DNA from: Geosiphon pyriformis uo1
Lineage: Eukaryota > Fungi > Glomeromycota
Length of the DNA stretch: 64,000 bases
Reading direction: 5' to 3'
NCBI GenBank assembly: GCA_016748015.1
Contig: JAAOMT010000660.1
Span: 201,875-265,874 of the forward strand
Within the stretch, counting starts at the first letter, position 1, and the number at the start of each line of letters is the position of its first letter. Shown in pieces: positions 8,667-59,263 of the stretch. The position numbers and the translations under genes are program-made. The notes under the pieces were generated by a model, which saw nothing but the letters and a program-made list of their open reading frames with translations, had not been told where the DNA came from and did not search any database.

Positions 8667-8889
8667 TGCGTTCCACTAAAATGAAGTATCAACGCAATTT
8701 TTATCCGTTTAGCTGGTATACAAAGCGATCACAGAATGTAATATGATAGCATATGAGTTCAATAATGTAAAAAAAAAATTAATATATAAATAATCAAGTA
8801 AAATTATTAATATAATAATTAAACAAATAAATATTTTAAAAACATATTAACAGCTTCATTGCTTCATAAAATTCTGAGATCTTATAAAT

Positions 8890-16241: not shown

Positions 16242-16386
16242 TATTGTCTTGTCTGGTCTAAGTGGCTAGCTACATATAATAAGTGTATGAGTCACTTTTA
16301 GTTTGAGTTACTTAGTTTGATTCTATGTATTAAATAGTGGTTGGATTTCATTTATTAATTGTATTAATAAAAAAAAATATGTTAAA

Positions 16387-22800: not shown

Positions 22801-23053
22801 AACTATGTTATACTTGTGAAAAAATGCTATTTAACAAAGAAATATAGAATAACATTCCTGATTAAAAAAAAATGTGTGACATATTATGCCAATATACAAT
22901 TCTTATAAGTAACTAAATAAGCCAAAAAACATTTTTTAATGTTATGTAAAACAAAACTCTCTTATGTTTGAATAATTACTTATACAACAAAGACAAAATC
23001 TGAAGAACAATAAATATTAAAGTTAAAAGTGCTTTACTTAATAAAATATTTGT

Positions 23054-24863: not shown

Positions 24864-25289
24864 TTATCATCAAAAATAACTCATTAAAACTTGTTGAAAC
24901 TATTTTTATCTTAAATTCAGATATTTTTGTTGACATTCTAAGCAATTTAAAACAATTTCACAAATACTACCAAGATTTAGCACCTATTCAAAAAAAGCAA
25001 AAGCAGCATTTAAAACAATTAAATGCAAGATTCTATAAATATTGCTTAATTTTTAGTGATTTTGAATATTGTAATAATTGTGATTTTATCTACAATCTAC
25101 TATTGCACATAATTTATTTGATTTCTAAAAAAGAAAAACCAATTAGTAGTTGTATTTTGGAATCAAAATCAAAATTTAATTATGATTTAGACTTTAACAA
25201 TAACAACAACAATGGTTCTAATACTATTCACTATAACAACAACAATAATAATAATTTAAACTCTAATTACAACCCTAAACAATAACTTA

Positions 25290-25710
25290 AATAATTCAGT
25301 GATAATAATAAGAGTATTATGTTAGAATATACATATGATACCAATAGAAAATTTGATCTCAGATATCCAAAAAAAACAGCCATTTAATTAAAATTTTATT
25401 TACACATCAATATAAATCAGAAAATAATACTGGAAATTTCAGCAATGATAATTGTTTAATTAGCTTTTAGATTTAGTTTAATAAAAAAAGAGATTAATAT
25501 TAAAAGGAAAATAATTGATGCAGAATATATAAAAAATATTATTGCAATATTATAAAATAACTTAAAAAAAAATATATTATTAAACCAAATAAAAAAATAA
25601 CACAAACAATATTTCTGTCTTTAATTAAAATAGTTTAATTAATGTTAATAGAAACAAAAAAAGAGTTAGGAATTACAATAAAAGAGATAAATAGATTTGG
25701 ATTTACAAAT
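25290..25710 (+). pseudogene. dUTPase domain of element B
   Basis: Decayed motifs HDTNRKFDLRYP, LAFRFSL, IIDAEY, KITQTIFL and INRFGFT, colinear with the cleaner copies in A and C. Confidence 0.75.
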
Positions 25711-28700: not shown

Positions 28701-29658
28701 TAAAACAGACTATTTCATATTAAAAAAATTCTAGAAAATAGAACTAATAAATTAAAATAAAACAAAATTTTAGCTAAAGTAGTATATAAAAATTAACTGA
28801 AACCATATTATAATATAACATAATTATTTACTAATAATATTTCATAATTAGAAGTACAACAAATATTAGTCCAATCAGATAAAATTCCATAATATCTAGA
28901 CCAATCATAATTATTAACACAAACACATTAAATTAATTTACAAAAACAATATATAAAAAATTAATACATGTAATGAAAGCAAATAAAAAAAATTGAAATT
29001 ACTAATAATATTTACTCATTTGTACAACAATTATTACAACTTATCCAATATTAAAAAGTAAGTCTAGAAATTACTATTAACAAATAAACAATTCAATATA
29101 AAAACAAATAAAGAAATCAAAAATCTCAAAAAAAAGAACAATATTTCAGATATCATACTTCTGGAAATCTAGTGAACAAAATAATAGAAAAAGTAAAAAA
29201 AACATTAGAAACTTTAAAAATAGTAATATCAGATAAAAAAATAATATTAAAAAATTAAAACCAATAGATACAACAAATTTCCAAGAACTTTTGCTACTAT
29301 TAGTTAGAACAAAAACTAAATATTCAGAACTTATATACAAATAAAACCAAAAAAATATTTAATATAACTATATTACAACAAATTAAACAAGTTGTAAAGA
29401 AAAGCAATTTATTTACATGTCCAAAAGCCATCTACTAACTACAAATAAGATTTCAGGACTAGCCAGAAATATTGTTATACTCAACAATGAGTATAGTAAC
29501 TATTAATCAACTGGAAAATTTAATTAATGCCCAATTCAACAAATTACAGACCAAAATTACAAAAGCAATTCTCAAAAAAAGTTATGGAGCTAATTCAAAA
29601 AAGAAATTTAAGAGATTTAGGAGATTTTAACAAAGCTCAATATTAAAAAAAAGAATAA

Positions 29659-30021
29659 TGTTGTTTATAGAAATTAAGAATTATAATAAGTAAATAAAAT
29701 AGCCAATCAGAAATAAATATAATAAAAAAAAAATTGCAAAATTTTAGAATTTCAGAATTTTAGTTAAAAAAATTGAAAAATTTCAAGAAATTTTATATAA
29801 CATAAATTATGTATATATATTAAAAGTGTTAAAAGCAAAAAAAGTATTCAAAACTCAAACAGTAGCTAGCAATAATTATTTATCTTATATCTTTCCTTCA
29901 AAAAATAGTTTTCTATAACTTGAAATAAAATCACATTAATATCAATAAAATATCTAATTAACATCCAATCCATATTATAATTGTTTGATTAAGAATATTA
30001 ATTACTTTTTTTATTATCAAC
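29659..30021 (+). repeat. 3' LTR of element B (5' part only; interrupted by LINE2)
   Basis: Follows the purine tract aaaaaaaagaataa and matches 19034-19430. Confidence 0.85.
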
Positions 30022-35780: not shown

Positions 35781-36291
35781 TGTTACTCATAGAAATATAG
35801 GAAATATATTAGCATGATTATTAGCCAATCAGAAGTAGGCATAGTAAATATGGAATTCTAGGATTCTTCTCAGGAATTGCAAGATTCCAGGAATTTCAGG
35901 ATTCTTTGATGAGGAATTGCAGGATTTCAGGAATTTCAGGATTCCTTGATGAGGAATTACAGGATTCCAGAATTCCAGGATTCTTCTCAAAGGAATCACA
36001 GGATTCCAGGAATTCCAGAATTCCTGTTATGAAGAATTAAGGAATTGAGGAATTTCAATTATGTATATATAGCAGCAGGATTAGAAGCTGAAAAAACAGA
36101 CCTCTTAGTTTAGATTTAATCTAAGCAACTCTCCAAATCACAAGCATCTAATAAATAACTATTTGTTATCTCAAACCTATTTCTACTATTAACACTTCAT
36201 GTTAATAGTAATTAATACTTAACCACACTGGAACAATAACTCTTGATCATGGCTATTGATGGAATACTAACTTGCAAATCGCCTTGGCTTA

Positions 36292-36334
<43 letters not shown>

Positions 36335-36739
36335 CTTTTTTTGTCTTATTTGTATGGAGCAGCAACATAGTAAAATTGACTGTCTGAGAATAGACTTCGT
36401 AATAGCCTGGTAAAAAAAGGAAGCTCCCTCTAAGTTTTGGATATTAACATTATCTTGTTAGCTTACCAAAAAGGCAAAAAAACAATGCCAGACTCTAATG
36501 ACTGTGTTCATAAGCTCGGAAAAGAAAGCTCACATTTATGAAAAACATTGCAATTGACGAAAAACAAACTCTGTGCCTTATAACCAAAGAACTCAATGGG
36601 TAAAATTCACATCCAGAAATAGATCTTCAGAGATTGATAATCAAGACTAAGTCAACAGAATTATGTGGAAGATGCATCATCAATAATTGAGAGCACCAAA
36701 CATTACTATTTCCCATACTCACCAAGTTTATTCGTAACA
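35781..36739 (+). repeat. 5' LTR of element A
   Basis: TGTTAC...GTAACA. U3 has ggaattccaggattc repeats (35850-36056), TATA at ~36063, hairpins, and a T-tract at ~36292-36342. Confidence 0.92.
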
Positions 36740-36741
36740 TT

Positions 36742-36758
36742 TGGTACTCCCTATAAGA
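36742..36758 (+). promoter_or_regulatory. Primer-binding site, consensus TGGTGCTCYCTGTGA
   Basis: Lies 2 nt after the LTR end in all four 5' LTRs: 19870 (tggtgctttttgtga), 36742 (tggtactccctataa), 45571 (tggtgctctccc) and 63787 minus (tggtgctctctgtga). Confidence 0.85.
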
Positions 36759-36795
36759 TTATAAATCTACAAAAACAGAGCACTCCCAAAAATAC

Positions 36796-39700
36796 ATAAA
36801 AGTGGTGACTATTAGAACAATAGGAAAGGATCACTTCTCATATGGAAAAACACTATTTCAATACTTTCGAAAAGACCTAGGAATACCAGCAGAAACTGCT
36901 TATGCAGAAAGTGATTTTTGTAACTATATTAACGCAAAAATTGACTGCTTGTTAGACCACACAACTGATACAGGAAGACTTGGAGAACAAATCCATCAAA
37001 GCTTACTAGGGTACTCAACAGCCACAACTACCCGAGCAATCGCTGAAACTCTGTACATAATCAATACAGACATTAAATATTATGTGGCACAACGATTCCC
37101 TCAAGTACAACAACCAGTGGAATTTGATCTTGAGAAATACGAAAACGAATCCAACAACCCCATAACTGCCCAAGCCAAGTCTACAGTCAACAAAAAACCA
37201 AGGGTCTTCTCCCCAACAACTTCATCATACCATCAGACACCCTAAAGTAGAATTGTATTCAACCCACCTCCAGAAACCCAGTCGGAAACACCACAAACTC
37301 CTGGAAATTCACACCCTTGGAATCAACACAGTTGGACCAAATCACTAGGAGAATACGGATTGCTGTTTAGGAATCTTACCCCAGCAGCCAGTCAAACAGA
37401 AAGAAACCCGTCAACTTGGGAACAATCACCAGCACAAAACTTAACAGAATTAACATCTCCTCTGACAGAAAAAACAGCTATTTTACAACCTATTGGTTCA
37501 AGTGACAAAGGAAAGCAACCAGCATTAGCACCCAGAGAACACTCAAATACATAGACACCAATCTCTTTAAACATAACCAATAACATCCCACCCATTAACT
37601 GGATCATGACTTACCGGGATATTGCTAAATTAGAAAAATTCTCTGGTGAAAAAGATAATGCATATTTTTGGATCGTGGACACCGAGAAAACAATTACTGC
37701 TAATGGTTGGAACAATGACCACACAATTCAGGCACTGCCATTCTTTCTGACCGAAACTGCCAATTCGTGGTACCAAAGTCTGACAGAGAAGCCTACCTCT
37801 TTTACCGAGTTTAAACTCGCATTTCTGCAATACTTCTGTGACCCCAATACATTAATCTGATTGCAGAATCAATTCAGCATAATTAAACAAAAAGATCATA
37901 AAGCAGTAACTACTTATCTTGGATGATTTAATCAAATCCTGCGTCAAATATTAGCTATCAAAAAAGACTACTACACTGTGGCACAAGTTTTTAATCAATT
38001 CATTAAAAGATTGTGGAATAATATTCTAAGATCCGTAAGACCCTGCCATCCGATCAGTTTACAAGATGCCATCGCTCTCACTTGCAATTTTGAGTCTGTA
38101 AAACAAGAAGCAAACCATACCTAAGCCATTAATTTAGCCATTAATGGAACCTCTGACATCGATGTAAAGATAACCCAATTGAGTGAGAAACTAACTCAGA
38201 AAATTGAGAGATTCTTAGCCGGAACTACAGAAACTTACCAATCATCCCAACGGAGAGAAAATAACAACAACAGCAGATACCTACAGCAACAAAATCATCA
38301 GCAACAGCAACAACCTTGAAGATCCAATCCCCACAACTGTTACTACTGCCAGAAACCTGGACACATCACCTGTGACTGCAGAAGGAAGATCATAGACCAA
38401 AATCAATGAAATCCATACCAGCAATTCAAATATCAGCAAAACATGATACCTCAATATTTTATACCTCAGAATCAACTGCCCCTATACGCACAACAAGTTC
38501 CGTACACTCAACTACTGTCCCAGAATTATTATCAACCACTACCAATGACACAAGCAATCCCTCACTATCAAACTTCCGCTTACAGCCCATCCAGACCTTG
38601 AGCTATAGACTATAATTAGAGATGGAAGAATCCTAACAACAATCAGATACAAACCAACAGTGGACTATCTCGACCAATTGCTTGTGGTCCTGCCCAATCT
38701 TGACTAACACCAACTGGATACCCGAATCAAGCTTCCTATTTTGGTCTTATGGAAGATCAGGATTTTGATAAATTTACACCTGTGAAAGGGAGAGATATAG
38801 AATGAATCTCCCAACCTTCCAAGCAAACAAAAAGCAATATCCCACCAGCCACTATTACTGAAGACACCATCCTAGCCACCATATTTCCTTTTGACATTGA
38901 TAATTTGAACACCTATAGTCTTTTTAGTGAAACAGCCATCAATCAGAATAAATCAATAATGGCCCTATACACCGATACCAGAGTCGGAGGAATAGACATT
39001 AAATTAATTCTGAATAGTGGATCAGCTGGTAGCATAATCATGAAGCAGCTTATGGACCAACTAAGTCGCCGAGTAGACCATGCTGCTACTGCTTGAATCA
39101 TTACAGCGGATGGAAACACAAAAACCCCGATAGGAGAAATTGACAACTTCTCTTTCAAGATTAATGGAATCCAAATCCCTACCAAAGTACTTGTTATGGA
39201 AGCTACTCAATATCAAGCTCTAGTAGGAAACAACTGGTTGTCAAAAGCCAATGCTATTCTCGACTGGAACACCCAAGAACTTCAACTCACGTTCAACGGA
39301 CAGCATGCCTAAGTCCCAGCTACATGCAGACACTTTAAAACCCAACGTACCAAGAAACCCCTTATTGAATTCGAAGACACATCAATGCCACCTACTATCG
39401 AGACCTATCAGATTTTATGGGCGGATGATTATCGAACTGAACTACCCCCACCACCAACCTGAGAAGAAAAAAAAAAAGGCAGAGCTGAAGAAAAACCCCA
39501 ATTGTCATCACTAGGATACGTAACCTCAGACCAAAGAAACTTATTTTACCAACTCCCAAGACTAATATGTGTTAATTGTGGAAAAAAACTATCCACTATG
39601 AATGCATGTATCGGAGACAACAAAAAATGGCCCACCGCCACCAAATACTATTGCAGACCTTGTTTACTAGAAAGATTTGGATGACCAAAATAACAAAGCA

Positions 39701-42589
39701 AGTGAAACAACATGCCATGCCTTACATGTGGCAAAATCCTGCCAGATGAAGGACTCTGAAATGATGTGTCTGGCAGAGGAAGAACATGCAATGAGGCTTG
39801 TCAATACACCATATTAATCAATGATTAAGTACGAAAGGGAATCTTCATCGAGGATGTTTGGAAACGAACACTCAACAGGCTGGACAGTTATCCATACAAT
39901 GACCACAAAATCTGGAGAATGGCAAGCGCCAAGGCCGAAAACATCATGCCTGAAGAAATACGAGAAATCAAGGACAACCCTTGGATGCCCGAATATAATA
40001 GACCCGACTACCCCAAGGATAATTTCTTTACAGATGACCTAGATGCATTTCAGAACTAATATTAGGAATTGGTCTCGACTTGCAAAGAACAAGAGCAAAA
40101 GTTGGCCAATTTGAATACCAAACTGTGCGATCACTGTTTGATTCCCTGTCACTTTCAGTACTGCAACAAATGTGATTTCATGTTCAATCTGCCTCCAAGA
40201 ATACTGTTTCCAATCACCAAACTACCTGAGCCCAAAGAAGAGGTATTGATCACCAAGGACATGTCATTTCAAGATCCAACTGAAGATACCAAAACAGAAC
40301 AGTATCTCACATATTCCAACCTATTCAAAGAACTAGAGCTAAAATGGTACAATAACAACAAGAAAAGAATCTGCCCCAAAAGAGTGCATGACACCGATAC
40401 CAGTTTTGACCTACAATAACCCGGACAATCACTTATCATTATAGTTTCACATTCCTTCGTAAAAATAGATCTTAAAATAGTGTTAGTAATTTCTGTTAGT
40501 ACAATGGTACAAGTTGCCTCTCGATCTAGTTTAGCCAAAAAAAGAATCAACATAAAAAGAGGAATCATCGATGCCGGTTACACGGGAAACATCATCATGA
40601 TGCTACAAAACAATTTGGACAGACCCTACAAAATAGAATCACAAGAAAAAATTGTCTAAGTTATTTTCCTACCCCTAGTTAAAATACCCCAATTAACCCT
40701 AGTAACAACCCGAGAAGAGTTAGGTCTCATTGCCTGAGGAATCAACAGGTTTGGATTAAGTGGAAAAGGAAACGTACCAGTTAATTTCACAGAGGAAGAC
40801 AGTGACCAGGTAGAATTTATCAACACTGACACTATCATCTCCATTCCTTCATACCGACAATACATCCTCAAGGTGAATCAAAAAATCCAAGATCAAGCCC
40901 TGTTATTTGAAGCCAGTCCCAAAATCTGTTCTCTAGCCGATGTTGCTAATCTATACCTACTGGCCAAAGTGCATAAACACTTCAAAATCCTCATCCACAA
41001 CTCGACAGAAGATGTTATTGAAATCCCCGAAGGGACCCTCGTTAGTTCCATATTCACAAATATTCAGAGTTCTGAAAAACCTCAGTCCATTTCAGATTTT
41101 ACACAATTATTCTTATTCTGTGATATTACCTTACAAGTATAAAATTTGCCAAAAGAAAGTTACTTGTTTACACCAGAAGAGATTAATAAATTGAATTTAG
41201 GATATTTAAGTACTCTGCAACAAATGCAACTCAAAGTCTTTCTGAATCAGTATGCTGATGTCTTTGCCAGTGAAAATGAGTTCAGACGCACTGACATCGT
41301 AAAGCATCAGATTGATACGAGAGACACTCAACCAATTAAGCAATGAGCTTACCACATACTCCCATCTGGCGATAACCTAATTAAGCAAGAAGTACAACGG
41401 ATGCTTGATAATGGCCAAATCAAAGAATTGTTAAGTCCTTGGTTCTCGCCAGTAGTCTTAGTCACCAAGAAAAATGGAAAAGTGCAATTCTGCGGTAATT
41501 ATCAAAAACTAAATAGCGTCATGCAAGGAGATAGTTATCCCACTTCCCTCATTCAAGAAATTCTGAACAATCTAGGGAAAAAGAAATGGTTCTCATCATT
41601 AGATTTAGCAAGTGGTTACTGGCAAGTTGAAATGGACCCCAAAAACAAAAAAAAAACAGCATTTACCACTTGAGACAGAAACTTCGAGTTTAATGTAATG
41701 TCTTTTGGACTTTGTAATGCTCCTGCCACGTTTCAATGTCTGATGGATGTAGTATACAAAGAAATCCTTTGGAAATCAGTAGTAGTCTACTTAGATGACA
41801 CAAACGTGTTCTCTGAAACATTTAAAGACTATCTGTTCCACCTGCAATAAGTCTTCGAATGCCTTTGTAGTGCTGAATTGAAACTTAATCCCGAGAAGTG
41901 TTCTTTGGAAAAACTGAGTTAAAATTCCTAAAACATGTAATCGGCAAAGACGGAGTTAAACTTTATCCAGATAAAGTACAAAAAGTCAAGAATTTTCTAC
42001 CCCCAATCAACCTCAGAGAATTATAAGAATTTCTAGAATTGGCAGAATATTATCATTGATTTGTCAAAAGTTTCTTGAACATCACAAAACCACTCCATCA
42101 ATTGTTGTTCAAATACATACCGTACTTGTAGAAGGAAGATCAACAGAAAGCATTCAACTATTTCAAGCAGTGATTGATCACATCCCAATTCGGATTTACC
42201 CAGATTTCACTAAATGGTTCATTGTCACTACGGACGCCTCAAAAAATGCTCTAGAAGCAGTCTTATCACAGATAGGATTAGACAATAAAGAACACCTAGT
42301 TGCCTACGCTACTTGTAACACTAGCCCAATAGAAAAAAATTACAGCACAACTGATCTGGAATGTCTCGCTATTTATTGGGCCATACAGACTTAGAAACAT
42401 TACCTCAGTTAACCATTTGACCTATATACTGACCACAAAGGACTTATTTGGTTACTCAACAATCCACAACTAGAAAAAAAATATGCAAGATGAAGTACTT
42501 ATCTGCAACAATTCTTATTCAAAGTCCATTACAAGGAAGAATCCAAGAACACCAATGCCAACAGTTTGTCGAGAATACTACAAACCTAA
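36796..42589 (+). pseudogene. Element A polyprotein: gag - protease - Cys-rich domain - dUTPase - spacer - RT - RNase H
   Basis: ORF fragments at 36802, 37360, 37606, 38905, 39502, 40069, 40873, 41146 and 41401 all lie in one frame. Motifs: LEKFSGE (capsid), CYYCQKPGHITCDC, LILNSGSAGSII (D>N), LDLASGYWQV, YLDD (41788-41799), IVTTDAS, NYSTTDLECLAI, NANSLSR. Stop at 42587-42589; frameshifts near 41900-42200. Confidence 0.9.
40340..40764 (+). pseudogene. dUTPase domain of element A
   Basis: HDTDTSFDL, QVASRSSLA, GIIDAGYTGNI, EKIV*VIFL and GINRFGLSG correspond to trimeric dUTPase motifs 1-5. Confidence 0.9.
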
Positions 42590-42599
42590 TCCCAGACCC

Positions 42600-43966
42600 A
42601 TGGACACACTTACTTATCAATGACTACATCAGTACCTATTGACACTACGTTTCAAGGAGATATTATCTCAACAAGAACAGAGTACCATACAAAAACAAGC
42701 CTGAAATTATTTTATTCAAGACAACCAACTATATCAACAAGAATGCCAAAACCACCCCAACTCACAACGACTAATCAAGGACAGTGAAAAAGAAACTATA
42801 CTATATAGCATACACTTAGATCTGACTGCAGGACACTTTAACAAAAACACTACCCTCAAAAAAACACTAAACTTATACTATTGGCCAACAATATACAAAG
42901 ACATTTTCGAATATATGCTCAATTGTGATACATGCCAGCAAAGAGAAGGAGCAAGATCAACAGAACCACTTCAATTCATTCTAGTTGAAAATCCATTTGA
43001 TAGAATCAGGATCGATTTGGTTGGATCTTTTTCAATTACATCTCAAGGAAATTGCTATATTGCTATAGCCATAGATTATTTTACAAAATGGCCAGAAGCC
43101 AAAGCAATCCAAGTGGCCAATGCCAAAACAGTAGCCAAATTTGTGCATCAAGACCTAATTTGCTAACATAGATGTCTGAAAGAATTATTATCTGATCAGG
43201 GAACACACTTCGCTAATAATATGCTGACTGAACTAAGCCAATAGTTTGGAATAAAGAGACCCTTATCGTTACCATACCACCCACAAATGAACGGACTGGT
43301 AGAATGATTTAACAGAACACTATGGAAGCACTAGCAAAAATAAGTCATGAAAACAGACAAGAATGTGACTTATTTATACCTTCTGTACTCTTTGCATACC
43401 AAACATTGAAACAAAATACAACTCAGTTCACACCATTCGAACTAGTCTATGGAAGAAAAGCTATGTTACTGATTGAACAAGTGATATTGTCATACCCAAC
43501 AGAAACAATCAATGAAGAGAATTTTGAGACTACCTTATACCAAAAAACGTACCAGCTAATGCAAATGTTGGAAAACAATTGAAGAACAGCAGCTGACAAT
43601 ATTAGTCATGCTCAAGAATGACAAAAAGAAAGACATAATAAACACCTATCAGAACAACCAATGGAATTCAAAATTAGAGACCAAGTACTGTTACATTGTA
43701 CAAAAGCTGAAAAACAGTAGAGTAGAAAGTTTGACTCAAAGTGGGACGGTCCATTCCACATACACAAAGCATTAGAAAATGGAGCTTACAAATTACGATT
43801 GGAAGACAAGATTTTAAAAAAAGTAGCACATAGAAATTGGTTAAAAATTTATCATGTAAAACAAGAATCATTGTCATCAGTATCTCAACTAGGAACACAA
43901 ATTTCATTAATCAGACCAGAAGATATACCATGAGATCTGGAACCAATCATCATCATCAAAATGTAG
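42600..43966 (+). pseudogene. Element A integrase (HHCC, DDE, GPF/Y; no chromodomain), apparently a separate ORF
   Basis: ATG at 42600 (MDTLTYQ). Contains HLDLTAGHF...NCDTCQ, RIDLVG, IDYFTKWPEA, LLSDQGTHF, YHPQMNGLVE, FTPFELVYGR, KWDGPFHI, and ends EPIIIIKM*. Confidence 0.9.
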
Positions 43967-44591
43967 ACAATGGGCAGCAAATTAAATTGGAGAATTCAAA
44001 TATATATAGCATCCGAAAAGCAGTAAGAAACAATAGAAATTTCAACATGGACCTTTCAGATCAAATTTTAAAATTATTTAAACAATTATTTGAAACAATT
44101 CAAAAATTGACATCTCAAATAGAAATAACAATTGATAAAAAAAAAATACAGTACAAAGATAAAAGCAGGAGAGGGGAGGATGAGAGTTTAATTAGAACTA
44201 AACATTTCTTCCCCTATCCATCACCCAAAAGACAATGTTGAAGGAAAAATTGCCTTTGGGCAGGAGGTGAAAAAGAAGAAGACAAAGAACAAGAAAAAGG
44301 TTACAAAAGAAGATACTTGGTCTCCAAGCTCGAAAAAATAAAAAAAGCTTTAGCTTGTAAGACCGAACTCCTCAAAACAGATAAGTGGACACCTGACAAT
44401 ACCCAGAAATGAAAAGAAAGACTTCCTTCAGCTTATTGGTTCTACAAAATTGGAGAACAGCTTGACTTGAAAACACCATATGAAGACCTTAGGCAGAAAA
44501 CATTTAACAAAGAAGCAATACAACAAGTAGAAAAATTTGTAAAGAAAAACAACCTAACCCTATATTACAAAGAAGCATACATACTATACGC

Positions 44592-45568
44592 TGTTATCAG
44601 ACAAAATTAGAGATATTATATAGCATAAAATTATCTTATAAATTCTATCATTAATTAGCATATATTATCATTTCAAATTATCACTTAATATATTAGCAAA
44701 ATGTCCAAAATTATCATTTAATTAATAACCCAATTTGTATATAACACAAATGTAACCTAATTGCAATGATCAATTATGTAATACCCCGAACTATGTAACA
44801 TTCAAAAAGTTCACCAAAATTTGAAGAAATTTGCCGAAATAATTGATAATTTACCAAAATATCTAATAGTTCGCAGAAATAACTTGTAGTTTGCCGAAAT
44901 GTATCTTTAGTTCAGTGAAATTGTAGAAAAGATCAAAGTTCAAGTTTATAGAATAGTGTTACAACAAGTTGTATAAAAGAAAAGCTTCTCTTTTTGAGAA
45001 AATGTATTTTACTTTAGATTTATCACTTAGAATCATTCCTACACACACAAAAGAGAAATAAATATCAAACAAATTCAAAAAACCAAATTCTTTAATTATT
45101 GCACTTGAAAAATTCTCAAAACCCAACCAACATTCTGAAATTGATTAGCTACCAATTTCAATAAACTGTTAGTAACTCTAGGCCTGGATCGAAAACATTT
45201 CTCTTGACAGAATTCTATTTCTTTTACATTTTTTTTATTTTCTTTTTATTTTCTTATTATAATCATTAAGATAGCCTACAGACGAGATTTCTGTAGAAGA
45301 GTTGACTTTTACAGCAAAGTAACTACACATTTTAGTGAGCTTCCAGATGAGCAATTCTTGAGAAAGAGTTGACATTTACTACAATGTAACTATACAAAGT
45401 AACTGGCATGAAATTGCCCATTCCACTTATAAGCCCAGCAATTCAAATTATAGGAGATAATTTGAAGATAAATTCAGTACTGAAGATTCAACCACATCCA
45501 GAAAATGTGAATTCACAGCAAACAAGCATCGACAATATTTAAGAAGAGACCAAAAACCTCCAGTAACA
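44592..45568 (+). repeat. 5' LTR of element C
   Basis: TGTTA...GTAACA; colinear with 49797-50775 and 23110-24089. Confidence 0.95.
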
Positions 45569-45615
45569 ATTGGTGCTCTCCCACAGAAATAACACAACAA
45601 CAACAAAAATTCAAA

Positions 45616-48600
45616 ATAGCGACCACACCAGATGCAACAACTCTAGAGTATTACCAGTCAATTTACACCCACTGCAAGCAAAGGTTCAACATTCCAGACG
45701 GAATTGAAGTTGTCAAGAAATCAGTATACCAATACATTGAAAACCACATCAACAATTATCTTTTTGGAAATTACAATATCTCAGAAATTAGAAGCAACCT
45801 TTACAATAATTTAGTACACTATTCACAATTGGAAACTAAAGATCTTAACAGTGAAACACTTGCCACTTACTTTCATAAACTTAATTTTAACATTATCAAA
45901 TACTGTGAAGAAACATATCCAGTGCAGTCTCAATATTCTATTGATTTTGAATTGGAAACAGAAACAAGCAACAAAGGCAAAAACAAATTGAAGCAATACT
46001 CAAATACCACCCCAAATACTCCAACACTACCAAAAACAACTGCCAAATATTTACAAACACCTGAACAAGGAACCAGTTCAAAACTTCCACTTACTATCAC
46101 ACCTTTTCCAGCTTCACTTGTACAAGCACAAACATCTAATTCACCCTTGAATCAATTTGCAAGACCAGAAAATTTTACATCACTCAGAAGTCCCACCAGA
46201 CAACAAGAATCTCTTCAAACTAGTTCCAATCTCCTTGACTTTCTAGCTAAAAATCAAAGTGAACACTCTGAGACAGCAGCGAACAAAGAAAACAAACCAG
46301 AAATATCTAAAGAAGAATCAATAGACAACAAAAACAAAGAAGACGAAATGACAACATATATCGCAAAAATCCCTGAATTTAATGGAGAAGACATTGAGAC
46401 CAGTCCCCAAGAATGGCTCAACCAAATTACTAAAGTGGGAGATGCAAATAGATGAAATGCTGCCAGAATGTTAAGAACAATTCCCTACTTTCTTAAAGGA
46501 ACAACAGGAGAATGGTTTGAAAACTTGGCCACCTCATTCAATGATTAGAACGCTTTCAAAGCAGCCTTCCTTGAACAGTTCACCGACAATAATACCTCTA
46601 TCACCCTTTGCAATTGTTTTCGAAATATCAAACAAGAACCCTCTGAATCTGTTATAACTTATATTGGAAAATTCAACAAACTTCTCAGACAAATTTGCCA
46701 ACTCAAGACAAATGATTATTATTTCAATGCTCAAATCTTAGATCAATTTATCACTGGTCTAAAAGATAAATTAATTAAAAAGGTTTGCTTACATGCATCA
46801 GAAGATTTAAACTCTGCCATAGAGCATGTGAAAAGATACGAAATGGCCATGGAAAAGGCCAATTACACAAAACTTGTAAATTTGGCAATTAGAGAAACCA
46901 GCTCAGCAGCTGAGAAAAAAATTGACCAACTGACAAAGAAGGTTGAAAACTATTTTACCAATCAACAACAACAGCAACCCCAAAGATATCAACCACCCCA
47001 AAGACGAAATCAAAATAACTTTACACCACTTTCCAATAAGCAGCCTCAGAATTGCCATTACTGTAGAATCTCTGGCCACTGGAAACGAGATTGCAGAAAG
47101 CTACAATGAGACCAACAAAATAGAAGTAATCAATGTTATTCTCCACTACAGCAATCTTATTATCAACCACCACCACCAGCTTACTATCTACCAAGATTCC
47201 AATACCAAAATAACTATTATCAGCCTGCCCCACAGCCAATCCAACAGCAATACCAACAACCACCCACACAACATTATCAAGTATCTGCTCGAAAACTGAT
47301 TACACAAAATCAATTCACACCACAAAACCAATACCAAGTAAACAACAATAGAATCAGTTTGAACAACCAATTGGTTCTCCAAAATTCCACTCAACCAAGA
47401 CCCAATCACTACGACACTCAATTCAGTTATTAAACAATGCTAGAAGAACAAGATTTTTACCATACTGCACTCTTGGAAGGTAGAGCTGCAGCACAACAAC
47501 AAAACTCTTTCTATACTCTCACCACAATCCCACCAGCCAGAATTGCTGAAAACGCTAACCTTTTAGATATATTTCTTTTTGAGTTCAAAGCAAATAAGTT
47601 ACTATTCCTGCTTAGCAATGCAGCTACCAATAAACAAAAAGCAATCACAGCTATGTACACTGAAGCAGAAGTTGAAGGAAAAACAATTCGCTTGATCCTA
47701 AACAGTGGATCCACCGGAAGCATTATCACCTACCAGTTAATACAACAGTTGAAGAGAAATGTCGACCGACCAGCTCAAACAGTAATCGTCACTGCCAATG
47801 ACATGAAAAAGACCCCAGTAGGAGAAATTGACAATTTTCTGTTCACTCTTGATAGAATCACCATTCCAGTCAAAGTTCTTGTAATAGACGCACCCCAGTA
47901 CCAAGCTCTCGTCGGAAATGATTGACTTCAAAAAGCCAATGCTAATTTGAATTGGGAAACACAAGAGTTAACAATCTCCTACCAAGAACAACATGCCCAG
48001 GTACCTGCCACTTATAGTACATTCAACAAATGCTCTGAAAAAGCCCCGGCTTTTGAATTTGAACTGGAAGAGAAAAAACCCCTCATTGAAACATTCATGG
48101 CTCTTGGATCAACATCCAACTGGGCCGATGAAACAGAACAAGAACATTTTACCCCACACTCTGAACCTGAAACCTCTGGATGGAATATTTTTTACTCAAA
48201 ACCCGAACCAAGAAAACAACGCCCTTATATTCCCCTTAAATGTAAGAACTGCCACAAGAAACTATCATCAATGGGAGCCTGCATTTCACCTGAAGAAGAA
48301 TATGAAAATCATACTTGTTATTACTGCAAGACTTGCCACAGAAAATAATGGGGCCATCTAATAAAAAGGAGCGGAAAATGGGACAATACCCCTTGTTTGA
48401 CTTGTGAAGATATACTACTGGAAGAATACAATTGGATTGATGTAGCCATGAGAGGAGGAGTCTGTGATCAGACCTGCTAATATGTTTTATCAATTTCAGA
48501 AAAAGTAAAAAGAAGAACACTCTTTAATGCAGCATACAACAGTGCTTTCAACAAACTTTATCACTACTCTCATGATGCCCAGATGATTTTTGACCTAGCA

Positions 48601-49540
48601 ATGGCATTAATTAATAGAGCTATCAAAGAAAATGTTCATCAAATGAAGGAAGCAGAATACATTGAATACACCATGAAATTAACTGGATTTAATTACGAAG
48701 ACAAAGTAGAAATCTACCACCAAATTGCAAGTCACACCTACCCAACCCAAAAAGCTCAAATTCAACGATTAGAGCAAATAAACATTAGGCTATGTGAAGA
48801 ATGCATTATGCCTTGTGATGAACAGTAGTGTCCTGAATGCTACACTTTTAGTATTCCCTTGCACAGCAAAAATGATGAGAACAAAATTGAATTTGGAGAA
48901 CCTGTAGCAACAGAAGAAATTGAAACAACACCTATCTATCTTATCAAAAATCAGCCTGTCTTACAACTTAAATACTTTAACAACAATGGACAAGGAATAA
49001 AACCCAAAAAAGCACACGAAATTGATGCTGGATATGACCTAAGATATCCAGGCAAGGATACTCTTGTTCTCAAACCCAAATCTCTCACAAAAATCAATCT
49101 CAAAATTGCACTCAAAATCCCACTAGGAGCAATGGTTCAAATCGCCTCCCGGTCCTCTCTGGCAAGCAAAGAAATTAATGTCAGAGGATAAATAATTGAT
49201 GTTGGATATACTGGAGACATTACAGTGATACTTCAAAACAAAACTAACAAACCATTCAAGATCGAACATGCTGAAAAAATTGCCCAAGCTATTTACCTAC
49301 CCTTAATCAACATTTCAGGTTTGCAACTAGTCAATCAAAGAGAACAATTAGGAAAAAGTGATAGAGGAACCCAAGGTTTTGGTTCAACTGGATGATTTAC
49401 AGTTCCAGTTAATATAGCTCTTAACACACAGAATGAATCCCACCAGATCCTCAGACTCCCACAACCAATTACCATCTCACTCTTTGGAGAACATCCAAAA
49501 ATCTACACCTGCCCAAAGCCAACAACTACACAACAAATTC
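45616..49540 (+). pseudogene. Element C polyprotein: gag - protease - Cys-rich domain - dUTPase (truncated after it)
   Basis: Fragments at 45829, 46828, 47437, 47947, 48583 and 48859 are all in one frame. Motifs: IAKIPEFNGE, CHYCRISGHWKRDC, LILNSGSTGSII, YQALVGND, CKNCHKKL...YYCKTC. Confidence 0.9.
48958..49392 (+). pseudogene. dUTPase domain of element C (cleanest copy)
   Basis: AHEIDAGYDLRYP, QIASRSSLA, G*IIDVGYTGDI, EKIAQAIYL and DRGTQGFGSTG: all five motifs, with one premature stop at 49189-49191. Confidence 0.95.
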
Positions 49541-49796
49541 AAGACAACAGCTGGACCAACAAACAGTCGCTACAAGCTCAAAGCTGTTCTTAGACTTTAT
49601 GACCTATTCCACACCTGTGAAAATGTCCTACAAAACCCAATTTTACGACCTTTGAAGATTCAATACATTGGAAAACTCACAGAACTGAAATTTCAACAAT
49701 TTTCAGACCAAATTTCTTCAATAATTTTGGATTACTATCTGGAAATTACAGACAGTACTTGGACTTTGATGGAGCTCAGTCTTGAGGAGGAGGTTA

Positions 49797-50775
49797 TGTT
49801 ACCAGACAAAATTAGAGATATTATGTAACATGAAATTATTTTATAAATCCTATCATTAATTAGCATATATTATCATTTCAAATTATCACTTAATATATTA
49901 GCAAAATGTCTGAAATTATCATTTAATTAATAACCCAATTTGTACATAACACAAATGTAACCTAATTGCGATGATCAATCATGCAATACCCCGAACTATA
50001 TAATATTCAAAAAGTTCGCCAAAATTTGAAAAAATTCGCCAAAATAATTGATAGTTCACCAAAATATCTAATAGTTCACAGAAATAACTTGTAGTTTGCC
50101 GAAATATATCTTTAGTTCAGTGAAATTGTAGAAAAGATCAAAGTTCAAGTTCATAGAATAGTGTTACAACAAGTTGTATAAAAGAAGAGCTTCTCTCTAC
50201 GAGAAAATATATCTTATTTTAGATTTATCACTTAGAATCATTCCTACACACACAAAAGAGAAATAAATATCAAACAAATTTGAAAGACCAAATTCTTTAA
50301 TTATTGCACTTGAAAAATCCTCAAAATCCAACCAACGTTCTAAAATTGATTAGCTACCAATTTCAATAAACTGTTAGTGACTCCAGGCCTGGATCAAAAA
50401 TGTTTCCCTTAACAGAATTCTATTTTTTTTACATTTCTTTTATTTTCTTTTTATTTTCTTATTATAATCATTAAAGTAGCCTACAGACGAGATTTCTGTA
50501 GAAGAGTTGACTTTCACAGCAAAGTAACTACACATTTTAGTGAGCTTTCAGATAAGCAATTCCTGGGAAAGAGTTGACGTTTACTACAACATAACTATAC
50601 AAAGTAACTGGCACAAAATTGGCCATTCTACTTATAAGTCCAGCAGTTCAAATTATAGGAGATAATTTAAAGATAAATTCAGTACTGGAGGTTCAATCAC
50701 ATCCAAAAAACATGAATTTACAACAAACAGGCATCAACAACATTCAAAAAAAGAGATCAAAAACCTCTAGTAACA
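49797..50775 (+). repeat. 3' LTR of element C
   Basis: TGTTAC...GTAACA following the PPT. Confidence 0.95.
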
Positions 50776-50984
50776 ATGCCATCTTTCAACATTGCCCAAA
50801 TGTACTACTAAATAGATCTATGAAAACCATAACAGTTAACAACATAGGACAAATAACTAATCAACAGTTCAAAAACCTACAAAAGGCAATACTCAAGGCA
50901 ACAATCGAACATTACACAAATGAAGCCATGATAACAGATACATACGGTTTTGCAGGAGCTCAATTTTAAAAAAGAGAGAGATAA

Positions 50985-52160
<1,176 letters not shown>

Positions 52161-54078
52161 CTGAGAATGACACAACAAAGCTGGAGATTAGCAATAGTAG
52201 CCTATTAACCAATCTCTAATTCATCCAACCAGCCATCAGGATTGTGACAGTGGAATTCAGGAATTAGGTACACCCAAAACCCGAATTCTTAACACTATTT
52301 AAGTCTTCTGGTTATCTCAGAAAATGCTTCATCCAACAACTGGGAACCCAACCAAAACAAATTACTTACCAGCAACATATCTTCAGCCACTGTAACCAAC
52401 AATGAATCACTAGCAGCAATTTTTTCATTTGAATTCAAAGAACTATTACAAATACCATTGTTTAATAAAGCTGTACTCAAAAAAAACCCATTATTACTAT
52501 GTACACTGATGCTAAAGTTGATGGTTAGACCATAAAACTGATCTTAGATAGTGGTTCAGCAGACAGCATCATCACATAACAACTTATGAACCAATTAAGT
52601 CACCAAGTTGATCAAGCTGCCAGCACAAGGATAGTTACAGCTGATAGAGCCACCAAGACTCCAATTGGTAAAATAAATAACTTACCCATTGAAATTAATG
52701 GCGTCATTACTCCTATTAAAGTCTTGATAATAGAAGCAACACAATACCAGGCACTAGTTGGCAATGATTGGTTATCCAAAACTAATGTCATGCTTAATTG
52801 GACCACACAAGAGCTCTAACTCAGTATAAATGATCAGCACACACATATATCAGCCACATGTGGCCACTTTTAAACAAACACAGCAATCACACTCCTAATA
52901 GAATTTGAAAAAAAAAGAAAAAAACCTACTTGGAAAGCCTATCAAATTTTATGGGCTAACATTAATTACAACAAACTACCACTAATACCATTATGGAATG
53001 ACAATAGAAAAGAGAAAGAAAGAAGAAAAACTTACCAAAAATACTGACCAAACATGATAGACTGACAACAACAGTACTAAGCTAATACTAACCTGGAAGT
53101 AGGAAGAGAATACCAAGAGAAAAAGAAAAGAGAAGAAAAAAGAGCTAACACCAACCATCACCACTTATATTTTATACATCTATACCCTACTATTATTATC
53201 TAACTATTGCCAACCAAAACTGGTATGCATTGATTGTGGCAAGAAATTGTTGTCAATAGGTATATGCTGTAGTGATGATAAGAAATACTCTATGGCAACC
53301 AAATTCTACTGCTGTCCATACATCCTAGAATGCTTTGGAAGACCAAAGAGGCAAGAAAAATAGGACAACAAACCTTGTCTCACTTGTAAAGAAATTTTAT
53401 TAGATAAAAGAATGTGAAACAACATTCCTGAACAAGGAGAAACCTGTAACAAATCATGTCAATACACAATTCTAATCAGTGACTGGATAAGAAAAGAGAT
53501 TTCCATAAAAGCTGTCTAGAGAAGAGCAGTAAAATATCTGAACAGTTGTCCACATAATAATAATGAAATCTGGTAAATGGCACTCGCCAAAATTGAAAAA
53601 ACATCATCAAAAGAAATAAGAATAATTAAAAACAATCTACCAGACCCATAAAACTCAACTGGGGCCCAAATTCAGATATTATACTAGAACTTATGAATTC
53701 AGAACAATTCCACAAGCATTACCAAAAATTAACACTCACTTGAAAAGAACAGAAGCAATGATTGAAAAAAATAAACACACAATTATGTGATCATTGTTTG
53801 ATTTTCTGTGACTTCCAATATTGTAATGAGTGTGACCTCATTTACAATTTACCACCATACATAATCTACACAATTCTAGAAAAAAAGAAACCAATTAATA
53901 GCTGCACATCAGAACTGGAATCAACTTTCAATCTCAATTCAAATTTCAACAATAATGATGACAAAAACAACAGTTTTAGCTTTATACAAATTGGCAACCA
54001 CAACAATAATTCAAATTCTGATTCAAATCCAAAACAATATATTACTCTTTCTGACCTCACCAAAAAACAGAAATTGAA

Positions 54079-54498
54079 ATGGTTCAGTGATAATAATAAA
54101 GGTATTATGCCAGAATGTGCACATAATACTAATGCCAGATTTAATCTGAAATATCTGAGAAAAAATGCCATTAAATTGAAACCACATTCACACATCTGTA
54201 TTAATCTCAAAATAGCATTAGAAATCTCAGCAACAACAATGGTTTAATTAGCATCTAAGAGTAGGTGAACAAAAAAAGAAATCAACATCAGAGAAGGAAT
54301 AATTGACACAGGATATGTAAGAAATATCATTGTAATATTACAAAATAACTTAGAAAAAACCTATATTATAAAGCCAAATAAAAAGATAGCACAGGCAATA
54401 TTTCTGTCTCTGGTTAAAATAGCTCAATTAGTACTAGTGAGAAACAAAAAAAAATTAGAGATTACAGCTAAAGGGATACAGAGATTCGGATCCATAGG
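54079..54498 (+). pseudogene. dUTPase domain of element E
   Basis: AHNTNARFNLKY, LASKSR, GIIDTGYVRNI, KIAQAIFL, KGIQRFGSIG. Confidence 0.85.
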
Positions 54499-57400
54499 TA
54501 GAATAGATATATCAGTTAATATGGCAGAAGAAATTGTTAACAAGAGGAAAATTATCTTCACTTGTTAATCAATTTCCATTTCATCATATGACCAGTATAT
54601 GTTAATCATAAAGAGGAAAGTGAAGAATCAGGTTCAAATTTTTGAGGCAGAAGCAACACTTTGTAAATTAAAAGAAATTGGATTAGTTAATTTATACATA
54701 CCAGCCAAGAACCACAGTCACATCAAAATTCTTATTTACAACAACATAGAAAACACCATTAAAATACCAGAAGAAACTACTATTAGATATCTAATCACCA
54801 AAATTAAAGACCAATTGCCAAACACCATTCCAGATTTTCCACAATTGTGTAAATATGTAGATATAACATCTCAAACAATATATGAATAAAAAGAATGTTA
54901 TTTGCTTCAACCAAAACAATTAGAACAGATGAACTTGGGAAATCTAGACCCACTATAATGTATACAACTTAAGATATTACTTAACAATTTCAACAACATT
55001 TTTGCCAGTAAAAACTAATTTAGCAGAACTGACATAATCCAGCACCAGATATAGACTAAAAATGCAATACCAATTAAACAAAGAGCATACAAAGTACCAC
55101 CAGCCAACCATGAGATCATTTGTTAAGAAATCAATTAGATGCTTGACAATGGACTAATTCAGTTCTTAATGAGCTTATGGTCATTATCAGTAGTACTAGT
55201 ACATAAAAAAAATAGAAAAATCTGTTTTTGTATGGATTACTAAAAACTGAATAGAGTAACAAAAAGAGATAGTTATCCGACTCTAAAAATCCAAGAACTG
55301 TTCAATGCTTTTGGAGGAAAGAAATGGTTTTCAACTCTAGACTTAAACAGTGGTTACTAGCAAATAGCCATAAACTCAGAAAACAAAAAGAAAACAGCTT
55401 TTACAACTCAAGAAAAAAATTTTGAATTTGAAGTTATGCTATTTGGCTTGATAAATGCTCCAGCCACATTTCAATGGCTTATAAAAATTGTTTATACTGA
55501 ACTACTATGAAAATCAGTAGTCATATATTTGGATAACACTAATGTGTTCTCCAAAACATTCAATGATTATTTATACTATCTTCAACAAGTATTTAAAAAA
55601 TTAAGAAGAGCCAGATTAAAATTAAATACAACTAAATGTTTCTTTGGAAAAACTGAACTCAAGTTTTTGGGACATGTTGTGAGTAAAAATAGAATCAAAA
55701 CAGATCCAGACAAAATTGAAATAGTTAAGAACTTTTCAGTACCTACCAACTTAACAAAACTACGAATATTCTTAGAATTTGCAGGTTATTAATGCTGTTT
55801 CATCAAAGATTTTTCCAAACTAGCTCAGCCATTACACCAGCTCCAAACAAAAAACACCAAATATGAATGGACAGAAACTTAACAAGAAGCTTTTAATAGA
55901 TTAAGAAGAAAGCTTATTCAAGTTCCAGTATTGATCTATCCAGATTATAGCAAGCCATTTATAATTATAACTGATGCATCTGGTCAAGCATTAAGAGCAA
56001 TACTATCTCAAAAAAAAACAGATAAAAGAAAACACCTAGTAGCATATACCAGCTGCAGCTTAAATTCAGCTGAAAAAAACTATAAAATACCAGCATTGAA
56101 ATACTTAGCTATCTATTGGGCTGTTACCAAATGGAAAAAATACTTAAATCAAAAGTTTGAGGTGTATACTGATCACAAAAGATTGACTTCAATCTAAAAG
56201 CAAAAATTTGGAGACAATTATCATGTCAGATAAAAAATAGAACTTTTACTATTTAATTATACAGTATATTACAAAAAAAGAAAAAAAAATAGAAATGCTG
56301 ATGGCTTGTTATAAATGAAACAAATCTAAAACCAGTCCAACTCAAAAATATAACAAAAGATGAATATACAAAAATATTAACAACTTCAACATTATATAAA
56401 TACCCAATTGTTTAAGGAGGAATTATCTCAAAAAGAACAAAATAACATAAAACAACAATCAAAATATTTTATTAACCATCAAAATATACTTTACCAGAAG
56501 AACAAAAAAAATCTAGATCAACAAACCAAAGTAATTACAGAATCAGAGAAAGAGACAATATTGTTCAATATGCACTCAGATCTAACAGCAAGACATTTTC
56601 ACAAAGAAATGACAATAGAAAAAATCAGAAAAAATATTATTGGTTATTTATGTCATCCAATATGTCCAAAATTGTGATGTTTGTCAGAAAAGAGAAGAAA
56701 CAAAATCCAGTGAGCTATTGAGACCAATCAAAGTGAAACAACTATTTGATCACATTAGAATTGACTTAGTCAGACTATTAACAATAACCAGTAGAAACAA
56801 CAGATATATTGCAGTAGCCATAAACTATTTAACAAAATGGCCAGAAGCAAAAGCCATTCAAAAAGCAGATACAGAATCTATTGCTGAATTTATTCATCAA
56901 GATTTGATCTGTTGACACAGATGTCCAAAAGAACTATTATCAAATCAAAGAACTCACTTTGTAAATAGAACATTAACAGAATTAAGTCAAAAATTTGGGA
57001 TAAAAAGACTATTATTATTATCATACTATCTATAAACAAATGGGTTAGTTGAAAGATTTAACAGAACATTGTGTAAAACAATCGCCAAAATCAGTCAAGA
57101 AAACCAGGATAAATGGGATTTGTTTATATCATCAGTATTATTTGCTTACTGAACAATGAAACAAGACACTATACAAGCAACACCATTTGAATTAGTATAT
57201 GGTAAAACAGCAACATTATTAGTTGAGATAAAAGTCAAAACATATCTAACAAAACCAATAACAGAAGAGAATTTTCAAAGAATATTGTTAAGAAGAACAT
57301 ATGACTTAATAGAAACATTAGAAAACAAATGGTAAAAAGCAGCTAATAACATCTAAAAGTCACAAAAAAAACAAAAAAAAAGACACAATAACCAATTACC

Positions 57401-58427
57401 AGATAAACCAGTCAAATTTAGGATTGAAAACAAAGTACTTTTACATTATACCAAAGCAGAAAAACAATGGAGTAAAAAATTTGACCCCAAATGAGACAAA
57501 CCATTTCATGTAGAAGAAATTCTAGGAAATAAAGCTTATAAATTAAGGTTGAACAACAAAATTTTAACCAAAGCAGCATATGAAGATCAACTGAAATGAT
57601 ATCAAAACATAGCATCAGCATCCACCAGTAATATTTCACAACTGGGAGCACAGAGAATACTAGTTCAACCAGATGAGATTCCATGAGATCTGGAACCAAT
57701 TATAGTTATTGAACCAAACATGTTAAATTGAATAACCAAAAGAGTATATAAAAACGTGATATACATAACAAAAAAAAAATAGAAATACCAAACCATATTC
57801 ACACTTTAGCTTAACAATTGTTTCAGGCTTTAAGTCAACAGCAAGTAAACATGAAAATTATTATTAACAACCAAAAAATCTGTTATCAAAACACCAAACA
57901 AAAAGAGAAAAGTACACCATACTAGTGACCACAGAAACAATTAATAAACTGGTCAGATAAAATAGTAGAGAAAGTAAAGAACACTTTTGAAAAGATAATC
58001 ATCATTGTTCCAACAGAAAAACTAATAAAAGAAAATTGAAACCAATAGATAGACCAACTTTTAATACCATACTGCTATTATCAATTAGAACAAAAAGTAG
58101 ATATTTAGAAGTTATATCTTGACAAATCCAAGAGAATCTTCAATCAAAAGATAATTTGAAACATTAAAGACATTATTGGAAAGAAAACAAATTTAACACT
58201 ATACATTAAGACCATTTATTAACTACACACTATATTTCAAAACTACCCAGAAGTATTATTACACTCTAACATAGAAACAATAATTATTAACCAATGGAAA
58301 AAAATGAACAACTCACAAATTGAGAAAATAAAGAGTAGGGTGGAACAGACACTACTTGAAAAAAAAGTATTTGACATAATTCAAAATAAGGATTTTAACA
58401 GAGCTCAATATTAAAAAGAGAAAATAA

Positions 58428-59263
58428 TATTACTTATAAAAAAAACAGATATAGAAAAATAGTAGACCAATAAGGAAGTAATAGTTAGCACATGAGCATA
58501 TTGTTCAGCAATATGGAGCAATATTAGAAAATTAGGGCATATTGCTTAGCAATGTGAGCATTGCTCAAAAAATTATAACACATTGCTTAAGAATGTGAGT
58601 GATCTCATAAAACATAAATTAGGTATATATAGCAGTAGCATTAGAAGCAGAAAAGACAGACCTCTCAATTTAGATTTAATCTAAGCAACCTTCTACACCA
58701 CAAATATCAATAAATAATTATTTATTATCTTAATCTACTCTCTATTATCAACACTTCATGTTGATAGTAATTGATACTTAACTATATTGGAACAATAGCT
58801 CTTGATCATGGCTATTAACGAAATACTAACATTTATTGTCTTGGCTTATTTTTTTATTTTTTTTTCTTTTGTTGTTATTTCTTGTTGTGTACTAATTGAT
58901 TAAAAGATTAAAGTGCTGAGTTACTAATATCAGGATATAGCACTGGTAAAAGACCCAGGAATAAGAATAGACACTCAGATTTGAGAATAGCTTACCAGGA
59001 AATTGTCAGCCATCATGCCAAAAAAAAAATTAATGGAATTGTGATTTTAGGAAGCAATAGACAACAACTACTTAACCTGTGAGTTAACACTTGAAACACT
59101 ATTGAAAAAAAAAACCACATTGGAATCTCTATTCATTATATAAAAGATTTCATCAAAACTTTCAAATACAAACAACCTTCAGAAACCAACATTATTATAT
59201 CAATTGAATACCAAGTTATGAGTTTGTTATTTGCTTTGAGACCCCAAATAATTATCTGTAATA
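58428..59263 (+). repeat. 3' LTR of element E
   Basis: Runs tattac (decayed TGTTAC)...tgtaata. Palindromic gcatattgc/gcaatatg U3 repeats, TATA at ~58624, hairpins and a T-tract. Confidence 0.85.

Follow-up and report, generated by a model that had tools for sequence, protein, structure and literature searches.

Which kind of retrotransposon left five copies in a 64,000-nucleotide (nt) stretch of the Geosiphon pyriformis uo1 genome (assembly GCA_016748015.1, contig JAAOMT010000660.1, positions 201,875 to 265,874, forward strand; hereafter, the window), and how did it encode its integrase? Self-comparison and domain mapping resolved five elements (A, B, C, E and F), all of them decayed and dead copies of Ty3/Gypsy retrotransposons with long terminal repeats (LTRs). 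Their domain order, a stop codon with a new start between RNase H and integrase, and 4-bp target-site duplications were read directly from the DNA. We consider it likely that these nested, dead copies belong to a non-chromoviral lineage with a frameshift-free polyprotein, a separate integrase made by translational restart and a soluble third protein. A sequence-only reading of the window had proposed a distinct lineage with three open reading frames (ORFs) and extra modules—a view that our analysis supports, with the non-chromoviral character included. That reading did no more than imply the stand-alone integrase, which is the most unusual trait. The coding regions that carry the argument are as follows.

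36796..42589, plus strand: ORF1 of element A, with gag (N-terminal region, capsid, CCHC), protease, insert, dUTPase, spacer, reverse transcriptase (RT) and RNase H; start codon uncertain
42600..43966, plus strand: ORF2 of element A, a stand-alone integrase with H2C2, core and SH3/GPY-F regions; one frame break
19034..30020, plus strand: element B, complete domain order; the most decayed copy, heavily AT-drifted, its 3' LTR (from 29659) cut by a long interspersed nuclear element (LINE)
45569..49796, plus strand: internal region of element C, with gag, protease, insert and dUTPase, then a deletion joint
52161..59263, plus strand: element E, which starts shortly ahead of the protease and runs to its 3' LTR (from ~58428); adjoins the 3' LTR of A
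59264..64000, minus strand: element F, with the end of its 5' LTR, gag, protease, insert, dUTPase and spacer; truncated

Element A spans 35781-52160 and is interrupted inside ORF3 by C (44592-50775). A TAA codon follows RNase H at the equivalent place in A, B and E, and the integrase begins 10 nt after it in A, 30 nt after it in E (ATG at 56360) and 30 nt after it in B (ATA in place of ATG)—out of frame with RNase H in A, in frame in B and E. From the decay counts of the LTRs, the chance of three independent CAA>TAA changes is ~0.02. We also examined 78 metagenome loci retrieved via their RT, of which 49 held both RNase H and integrase; 32 of these were fused and 17 were flagged as split. Fifteen of the 17 split junctions were inspected (L053 and L068 were left out): ten had an integrase ATG between -14 and +98 nt from the stop, with a shared N-terminal motif after it, one had its ATG at +524, and four were decay breaks and were dropped. 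Six of the ten ATGs lie within -14 to +5 of the stop, ATGA and TAATG overlaps among them. Thus, the canonical two-gene layout, in which integrase forms the C-terminus of Pol, is replaced by a stop and a new start in A, B, E and 11 relatives. When 74 RT sequences were placed on one tree, all 11 genuine splits fell into a single clade together with A, E, the metagenome proteins P0219 and P0091 and a Rhizophagus element; the 32 fused loci all lie outside it. A further ATGA overlap, near the integrase end in A and E, was rejected as a junction: a sense codon stands at that place in other copies, and the integrase motif continues past it. One metagenome locus (L026, 1-9712) appears to be a complete element with a gag-pol frame change, a TAATG-coupled integrase and two 3' ORFs, and it makes a good intact model for the split-integrase clade.

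Upstream of the junction, the sequence-only reading had described a single frame from gag through protease, insert and dUTPase to RT in A, and from gag to dUTPase in C. Stop counts and Pfam matches bear this out: Pfam places gag, protease, dUTPase and RT of A in a frame with 28 stops in 1706 codons (vs 104 and 113 in the other two), and the gag-to-dUTPase frame of C has 10 stops (vs 59 and 103). Two frame breaks separate RT from RNase H in A, and they reflect decay, because E has both domains in one frame. The same full order had been claimed for B and E, and for F as far as preserved. It is complete in B and runs in F from gag through the post-dUTPase spacer; E starts at the protease, with neither a 5' LTR nor gag within the window. 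Likewise, integrase and a third ORF do follow as separate ORFs in A, B and E, but in C, RT, RNase H and integrase are missing, as is the greater part of ORF3. Amino-acid identity of the enzymes among copies is 48-62%, with 38-52% of residues differing.

Metagenome relatives show the corresponding order. The ENA metagenome protein P0219 is stop-free over 1064 amino acids (aa) and carries protease, insert, dUTPase and RT in one ORF; it is identical to A at 37% of 1139 columns and to C at 42% of 804. It clusters with A, E and B on the RT tree (SH support 0.76-0.78), and an IMG/VR scan using it as the query gave no match. P0091, also of metagenome origin, contains the tail of the insert, dUTPase, RT and RNase H, and terminates after RNase H. 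Programmed readthrough upstream of RT was considered and rejected, as the single in-frame stops of 12 loci lie at unrelated places and resemble decay. At the other end of ORF1, a conserved region of ~110 aa at the Gag N-terminus (36796-37130 in A, 45586-45930 in C) has no Pfam match and is possibly matrix-like.

40342..40770, plus strand: dUTPase domain of element A (PF00692, E 6e-11), aligned with intact relatives
39547..40200, plus strand: Cys-rich core of the insert of element A, with 15 Cys and a third-position transversion excess

PF00692 scored above its cut-off in A, C and P0219. Trimeric dUTPases are defined by five motifs, with an aspartate in motif 3; the motifs can be recognised in the aligned sequences, though those of A and E have decayed in part. 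The dUTPase of P0219 reached 64 bits against the 'POL polyprotein' dUTPase structures 1f7d/1dut, which we take to be lentiviral, and at most 50 against others, cellular dUTPases included. The post-dUTPase spacer was tried as a second, degenerate dUTPase fold, a candidate left unsupported by a match probability of 1.3%.

The Cys-rich insert between protease and dUTPase, noted as ~350 aa in the sequence-only reading, measures 337 aa in A and 318 aa in C. Its core of ~215 aa holds 15 Cys (7%, vs 1.3% in the upstream part of A ORF1), in the order CxxC..CxxC, CxxC..CxxxC, then a helical segment and finally a cluster of five Cys. From this pattern the insert likely binds zinc, about three ions placed around its helical part. 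Structure prediction gave a helical core with confidence (mean predicted local distance difference test, pLDDT, 71; predicted template modelling score, pTM, 0.47), and searches with it gave no clear fold match (best Z 5.9) and no viral fold at E 0.001; nor was a family match found in Pfam, the PDB or the Atlas (Atlas scores <=0.80). The insert has an excess of third-position transversions in 4/4 pairs (P 0.0002-0.04). A profile search returned 371 proteins, and the eight whose source was checked comprise seven from Geosiphon and one from an ENA metagenome, P0219—the one full-length intact carrier identified among those checked. All 29 long homologs of the protease-insert-dUTPase region of C are likewise Geosiphon pyriformis proteins. 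A sister-clade element (L002, 469-2757) has a different Cys-rich insert of ~450 aa after its protease and a frame change before RT; the position downstream of the protease thus seems to take varied cargo.

44047..44591, plus strand: 5' part of ORF3 of element A, cut by the C insertion
50780..50969, plus strand: 3' part of ORF3 of element A; both parts total 244 aa, the length of P0150

The third ORF begins in A after an 80-nt gap from the integrase, and in E it occupies ~57776-58410. In other copies, it reads uninterrupted across the insertion site of C. ORF3 is 42% identical between E and B, and its third-position transversion excess holds in 3/3 pairs (P 0.008-0.04), so that, as judged from these alignments, codon-level conservation is shown for both insert and ORF3. 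All 55 homologs of ORF3 are Geosiphon pyriformis proteins. Library searches gave no family match and the Atlas no usable one, and the structure model is poor (pLDDT 52, pTM 0.26). In two intact relatives, L004 and L026, the 3' ORFs are mutually homologous (E 1e-5), and a profile built from both returned ORF3 members as its top 11 non-self matches among 1107 sequences, with a best E of 0.0016. The 3'-ORF family was seen in 2/8 loci examined for downstream ORFs, several of which end too early to tell. ORF3 likely encodes a soluble protein and is likely an old accessory gene of the clade. The several accessory functions credited to the lineage by the sequence-only reading go further than the data, which show none for insert or ORF3.

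The Ty3/Gypsy assignment rests on TG..CA LTR ends, a primer-binding site, a polypurine tract and the order gag-protease-RT-RNase H-integrase. Additionally, Pfam matches to PF17917, PF17919 and PF19259 identify Ty3-type RT, RNase H and capsid. Against structures that we take, in part, to be those of Ty3, foamy virus and Moloney murine leukaemia virus, the RT of P0219 scored 135, 72 and 35 bits, respectively. Chromoviral features are missing: the integrase C-termini of A and E have no chromodomain and no Pfam match to E 1, with an SH3-like GPY/F region instead—in line with the sequence-only reading—and the duplication is 4 bp, not 5 bp. The LTRs and the elements flanking them supply the latter evidence.

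35781..36739, plus strand: 5' LTR of element A, chimeric; its 5' part resembles E/B-type LTRs and its 3' part the 3' LTR of A
36742..36757, plus strand: primer-binding-site-like TGGT motif, 2 nt past the 5' LTR of A; likewise in B, C and F
44592..45568, plus strand: 5' LTR of element C, 92% identical to its 3' LTR; 75/78 differences are transitions
49797..50775, plus strand: 3' LTR of element C; 4-bp duplication with one transition
50985..52160, plus strand: 3' LTR of element A, closely preceded by a purine tract; it contains a tandem array of 10-nt units and an extended poly(T) run
23054..24863, minus strand: solo LTR within the insert of B, itself host to a C-type solo LTR at 23110-24089

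Duplications of 4 bp were found at all three nested insertions that retain both flanks: exact for the C-type solo LTR, and with one transition each for C and the minus-strand solo LTR. Read as 5 bp, the duplication would have 4 mismatches for the C-type solo LTR and for C. The sequence-only reading had ascribed 4-bp duplications and TGTTAC..GTAACA ends to the elements in general. For the duplications this holds at the nested insertions, but A has none, and none is readable in the window for B, E or F; the ends are exact in A's 5' and 3' LTRs and in the 3' LTR of C, but decayed elsewhere through C>T or G>A. Of the single-copy changes among the three C-type LTRs, most are C>T (48) or G>A (39), with the highest rate per site at CpG (19/28), yet common elsewhere (24-31%).

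Several steps of the life cycle may be proposed for this lineage. The ORF1 polyprotein, from Gag through protease, insert, dUTPase and RT to RNase H, would be cut into its parts by the element's own protease. No gag-pol frameshift would ration the enzymes; ribosomes would instead restart past the polyprotein stop codon to translate the integrase, whose place behind a stop would hold its level low. A free integrase, not being part of Pol, would need to reach the particle through binding to RNA or to a partner. The dUTPase would likely exclude uracil from complementary DNA, and the insert probably acts as a nucleic-acid or protein tether—the weakest step of the scheme. Restart is the best reading of the junctions because 6/10 starts overlap or nearly touch the stop.

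A number of observations weigh against this picture. Spacers of 30-98 nt, and the one of 524 nt, suit restart less well than overlaps do, and the TGGGA restart motif is absent from 9/10 upstream regions. The split labels were assigned by eye, and support for the split clade is moderate (SH 0.71). The transversion test for insert and ORF3 was run on protein-guided alignments, which favour third positions. In addition, the insert occurs in none of the 78 metagenome loci and in 1/120 RT relatives, and is thus not clade-wide (3/78 loci have a dUTPase without it), while a profile-profile comparison of ORF3 with the relatives' 3' ORFs is weak (probability 2.8%, P 0.016).

The longer spacers and the missing TGGGA leave some room for integrase and ORF3 being expressed from spliced or internally started subgenomic RNAs, an alternative we regard as unlikely. 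The env genes and the foamy-virus pol are made from RNAs of this sort. The variable stop-to-ATG spacing (up to +98, once +524) and the 80-nt gap between integrase and ORF3 in A would fit it, and an ORF3 in an LTR element is, as a rule, its own spliced unit (PMC5408684; for this and the other papers cited, statements refer to the accessible portions). However, six of the ten junctions overlap the stop or lie within 5 nt of it, and a branch-point-plus-acceptor pattern appears in just 4/10 upstream regions, at no fixed place.

Far less probable is that the split is a product of decay in an ordinary two-gene Gypsy element that carries a dUTPase and belongs to a known non-chromoviral clade (Ylt1-like). 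All copies in the window do carry many C>T-type stops, the integrases of B and E are in frame with RNase H, and a dUTPase at this position is known (PMC2864245). Against this, relatives with otherwise open frames have the equivalent stop and ATG, often in another frame; the integrase of A is out of frame with RNase H; and the split trait tracks the RT tree. Taken together, the relatives' junctions and the RT tree largely refute a decay origin of the split. The sequence-only reading called the lineage complex-retrovirus-like, which our analysis does not support. Least credible of all, and close to negligible, is an infectious element of that sort, with ORF3 as an envelope or cell-to-cell movement protein: ORF3 occupies the env position, the dUTPase of P0219 matches 1f7d/1dut best and weak gp120 matches occur (E 0.02 or worse), but the gp120 matches do not reach significance and almost all come from variants of a single sequence, ORF3 has no family match, no hydrophobic segment and none of the signal or membrane segments of an env-like ORF (maximum 19-residue hydropathy 0.44; 0.44-1.04 with the relatives' 3' ORFs included), and the RT is closest to that of Ty3.

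Described systems share parts of this layout. The premise of the sequence-only reading, that typical fungal Gypsy elements are chromoviruses with a simple domain set, was too strong: chromoviruses are most, but not all, fungal Gypsy elements (PMC3248453), Ylt1-like and SN_1006 elements are non-chromoviral fungal lineages, and elements with one gag-pol ORF, with further ORFs or with a dUTPase placed between protease and RT have all been described (PMC2864245). Examples of 5-bp duplications are given in PMC2864245 and PMC5014426. As here, Phanerochaete elements, Tmt1 of Tuber melanosporum and PosPlaTy3-5 of Postia placenta bear a dUTPase, in PosPlaTy3-5 also between protease and RT (PMC2864245). 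These carriers are labelled chromodomain-containing in the supplementary tree, unlike the copies in the window, and neither a Cys-rich insert nor a stand-alone integrase is described for them in the accessible text of that paper. Ylt1-like and SN_1006 elements share the fungal host and the missing chromodomain (PMC2864245, PMC3248453), but come from ascomycetes and basidiomycetes, with no split integrase in the accessible descriptions.

The bdelloid rotifer elements Juno, Vesta and TelKA are alike in their dUTPase between protease and RT, GPY/F region without chromodomain and non-envelope ORF3s; Juno also has an extra zinc knuckle beside the dUTPase, and Vesta1b lacks a gag-pol frameshift (PMC5408684). 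They differ in their animal hosts, in an integrase within pol, and in ORF3s that encode esterases, exonucleases or fusion proteins (PMC5408684); the ORF3 described here matched none of these. Planarian Burro is a further case beside the rotifer elements (PMC6431247). Some Gypsy elements, from Rhizophagus clarus and from soil metagenomes (P0109, L003, L004 and L026), fall in the same RT clade, have the integrase as its own ORF and carry a 3' ORF weakly homologous to ORF3. They lack this insert and mostly the dUTPase, and some metagenome relatives have a gag-pol frame change (L026, L047) or the other Cys-rich insert (L002), unlike the copies in the window. Stop-restart translation is used by victoriviruses, hypoviruses and caliciviruses, and the ATGA and TAATG overlaps at some of our junctions resemble theirs; these viruses are not retroelements, and the junctions here have no TGGGA and, in the window copies, spacers of 10-30 nt. 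Ylt1 itself has a single ORF and a 4-bp duplication. The accessible portions of PMC5014426, PMC2774666, PMC10508981 and bioRxiv 2021.03.30.436303 hold nothing on this layout. Earlier publications cover the dUTPase position and fungal Gypsy elements outside the chromoviruses, while no description of a stand-alone Gypsy integrase, this insert or ORF3 was found in a literature search that left supplements, Repbase and GyDB outside, and these three appear to be without precedent.

The remainder of the window records how the copies were nested and broken. In C, a deletion has brought the spacer (~49539) up against the final ~84 codons of a homolog of ORF3. One frame across the bases of the joint gives spacer sequence and another gives the ORF3 of other copies, which would place the deletion at a short shared sequence—probably a template switch. 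An amplified deletion family was rejected for C, since proteins matching across the joint have full ORF3 sequence upstream. The two LTRs of A agree solely over their 3' 451 nt (88%), and the 5' LTR is 82% identical to the 3' LTR of E over 273 nt. Recombination between the LTR of A and that of an E-type host element is a likely cause, and it would also account for the absent gag of E; the outer flanks are unmatched as well, which calls for further rearrangement. Poly(T) tracts lie in the LTRs of A at 36290-36340 (~50 nt) and 51630-51760 (~130 nt), with shorter T-rich tracts at the matching position in B and E, and the chimeric LTR changes parent near its tract. The 5' parts of the A LTRs hold differing short tandem arrays, at 51035-51238 (10-nt unit, 3' LTR) and 35850-36045.

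Host genes occupy the left end of the window, and the rest is a nest of decayed retroelements with strong CpG depletion. Two decayed LINE-type elements, at 30020-35780 (minus strand; RT and RNase H matches) and ~10700-16400 (plus strand), are 65-72% alike. The extremely AT-rich interval 16300-18650 (13-16% GC) is perhaps a very old, fully drifted element. Pfam matches identify the host genes in the part of the window that retains CpG.

606-1616 and 6618-8675, minus strand: a triose-phosphate transporter family exon and TFIIF-alpha

Retroelement integrase normally reaches the particle as part of Pol, and a clade that encodes it separately needs another route for rationing and packaging—one that the junctions of intact relatives make directly testable. 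It is conceivable, if somewhat short of an even case, that the copies point to a widespread, undescribed Gypsy clade of Glomeromycotina-like fungi, with a free stop-restart integrase packaged without Pol fusion and an ancient accessory family, in which the Geosiphon branch would have added a new three-zinc module and a dUTPase and then fed much of the LTR expansion of that genome. LTR elements make up 41.2% of the Geosiphon pyriformis genome (PMC11952901). Insert and ORF3 represent two protein families without a match in the libraries searched (Pfam, PDB and Atlas for the insert), and hundreds of Geosiphon 'hypothetical proteins' match pieces of the element (371 with the insert profile, 55 with ORF3). 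A correct element model would clean up the annotation of Geosiphon and related symbiotic fungi.

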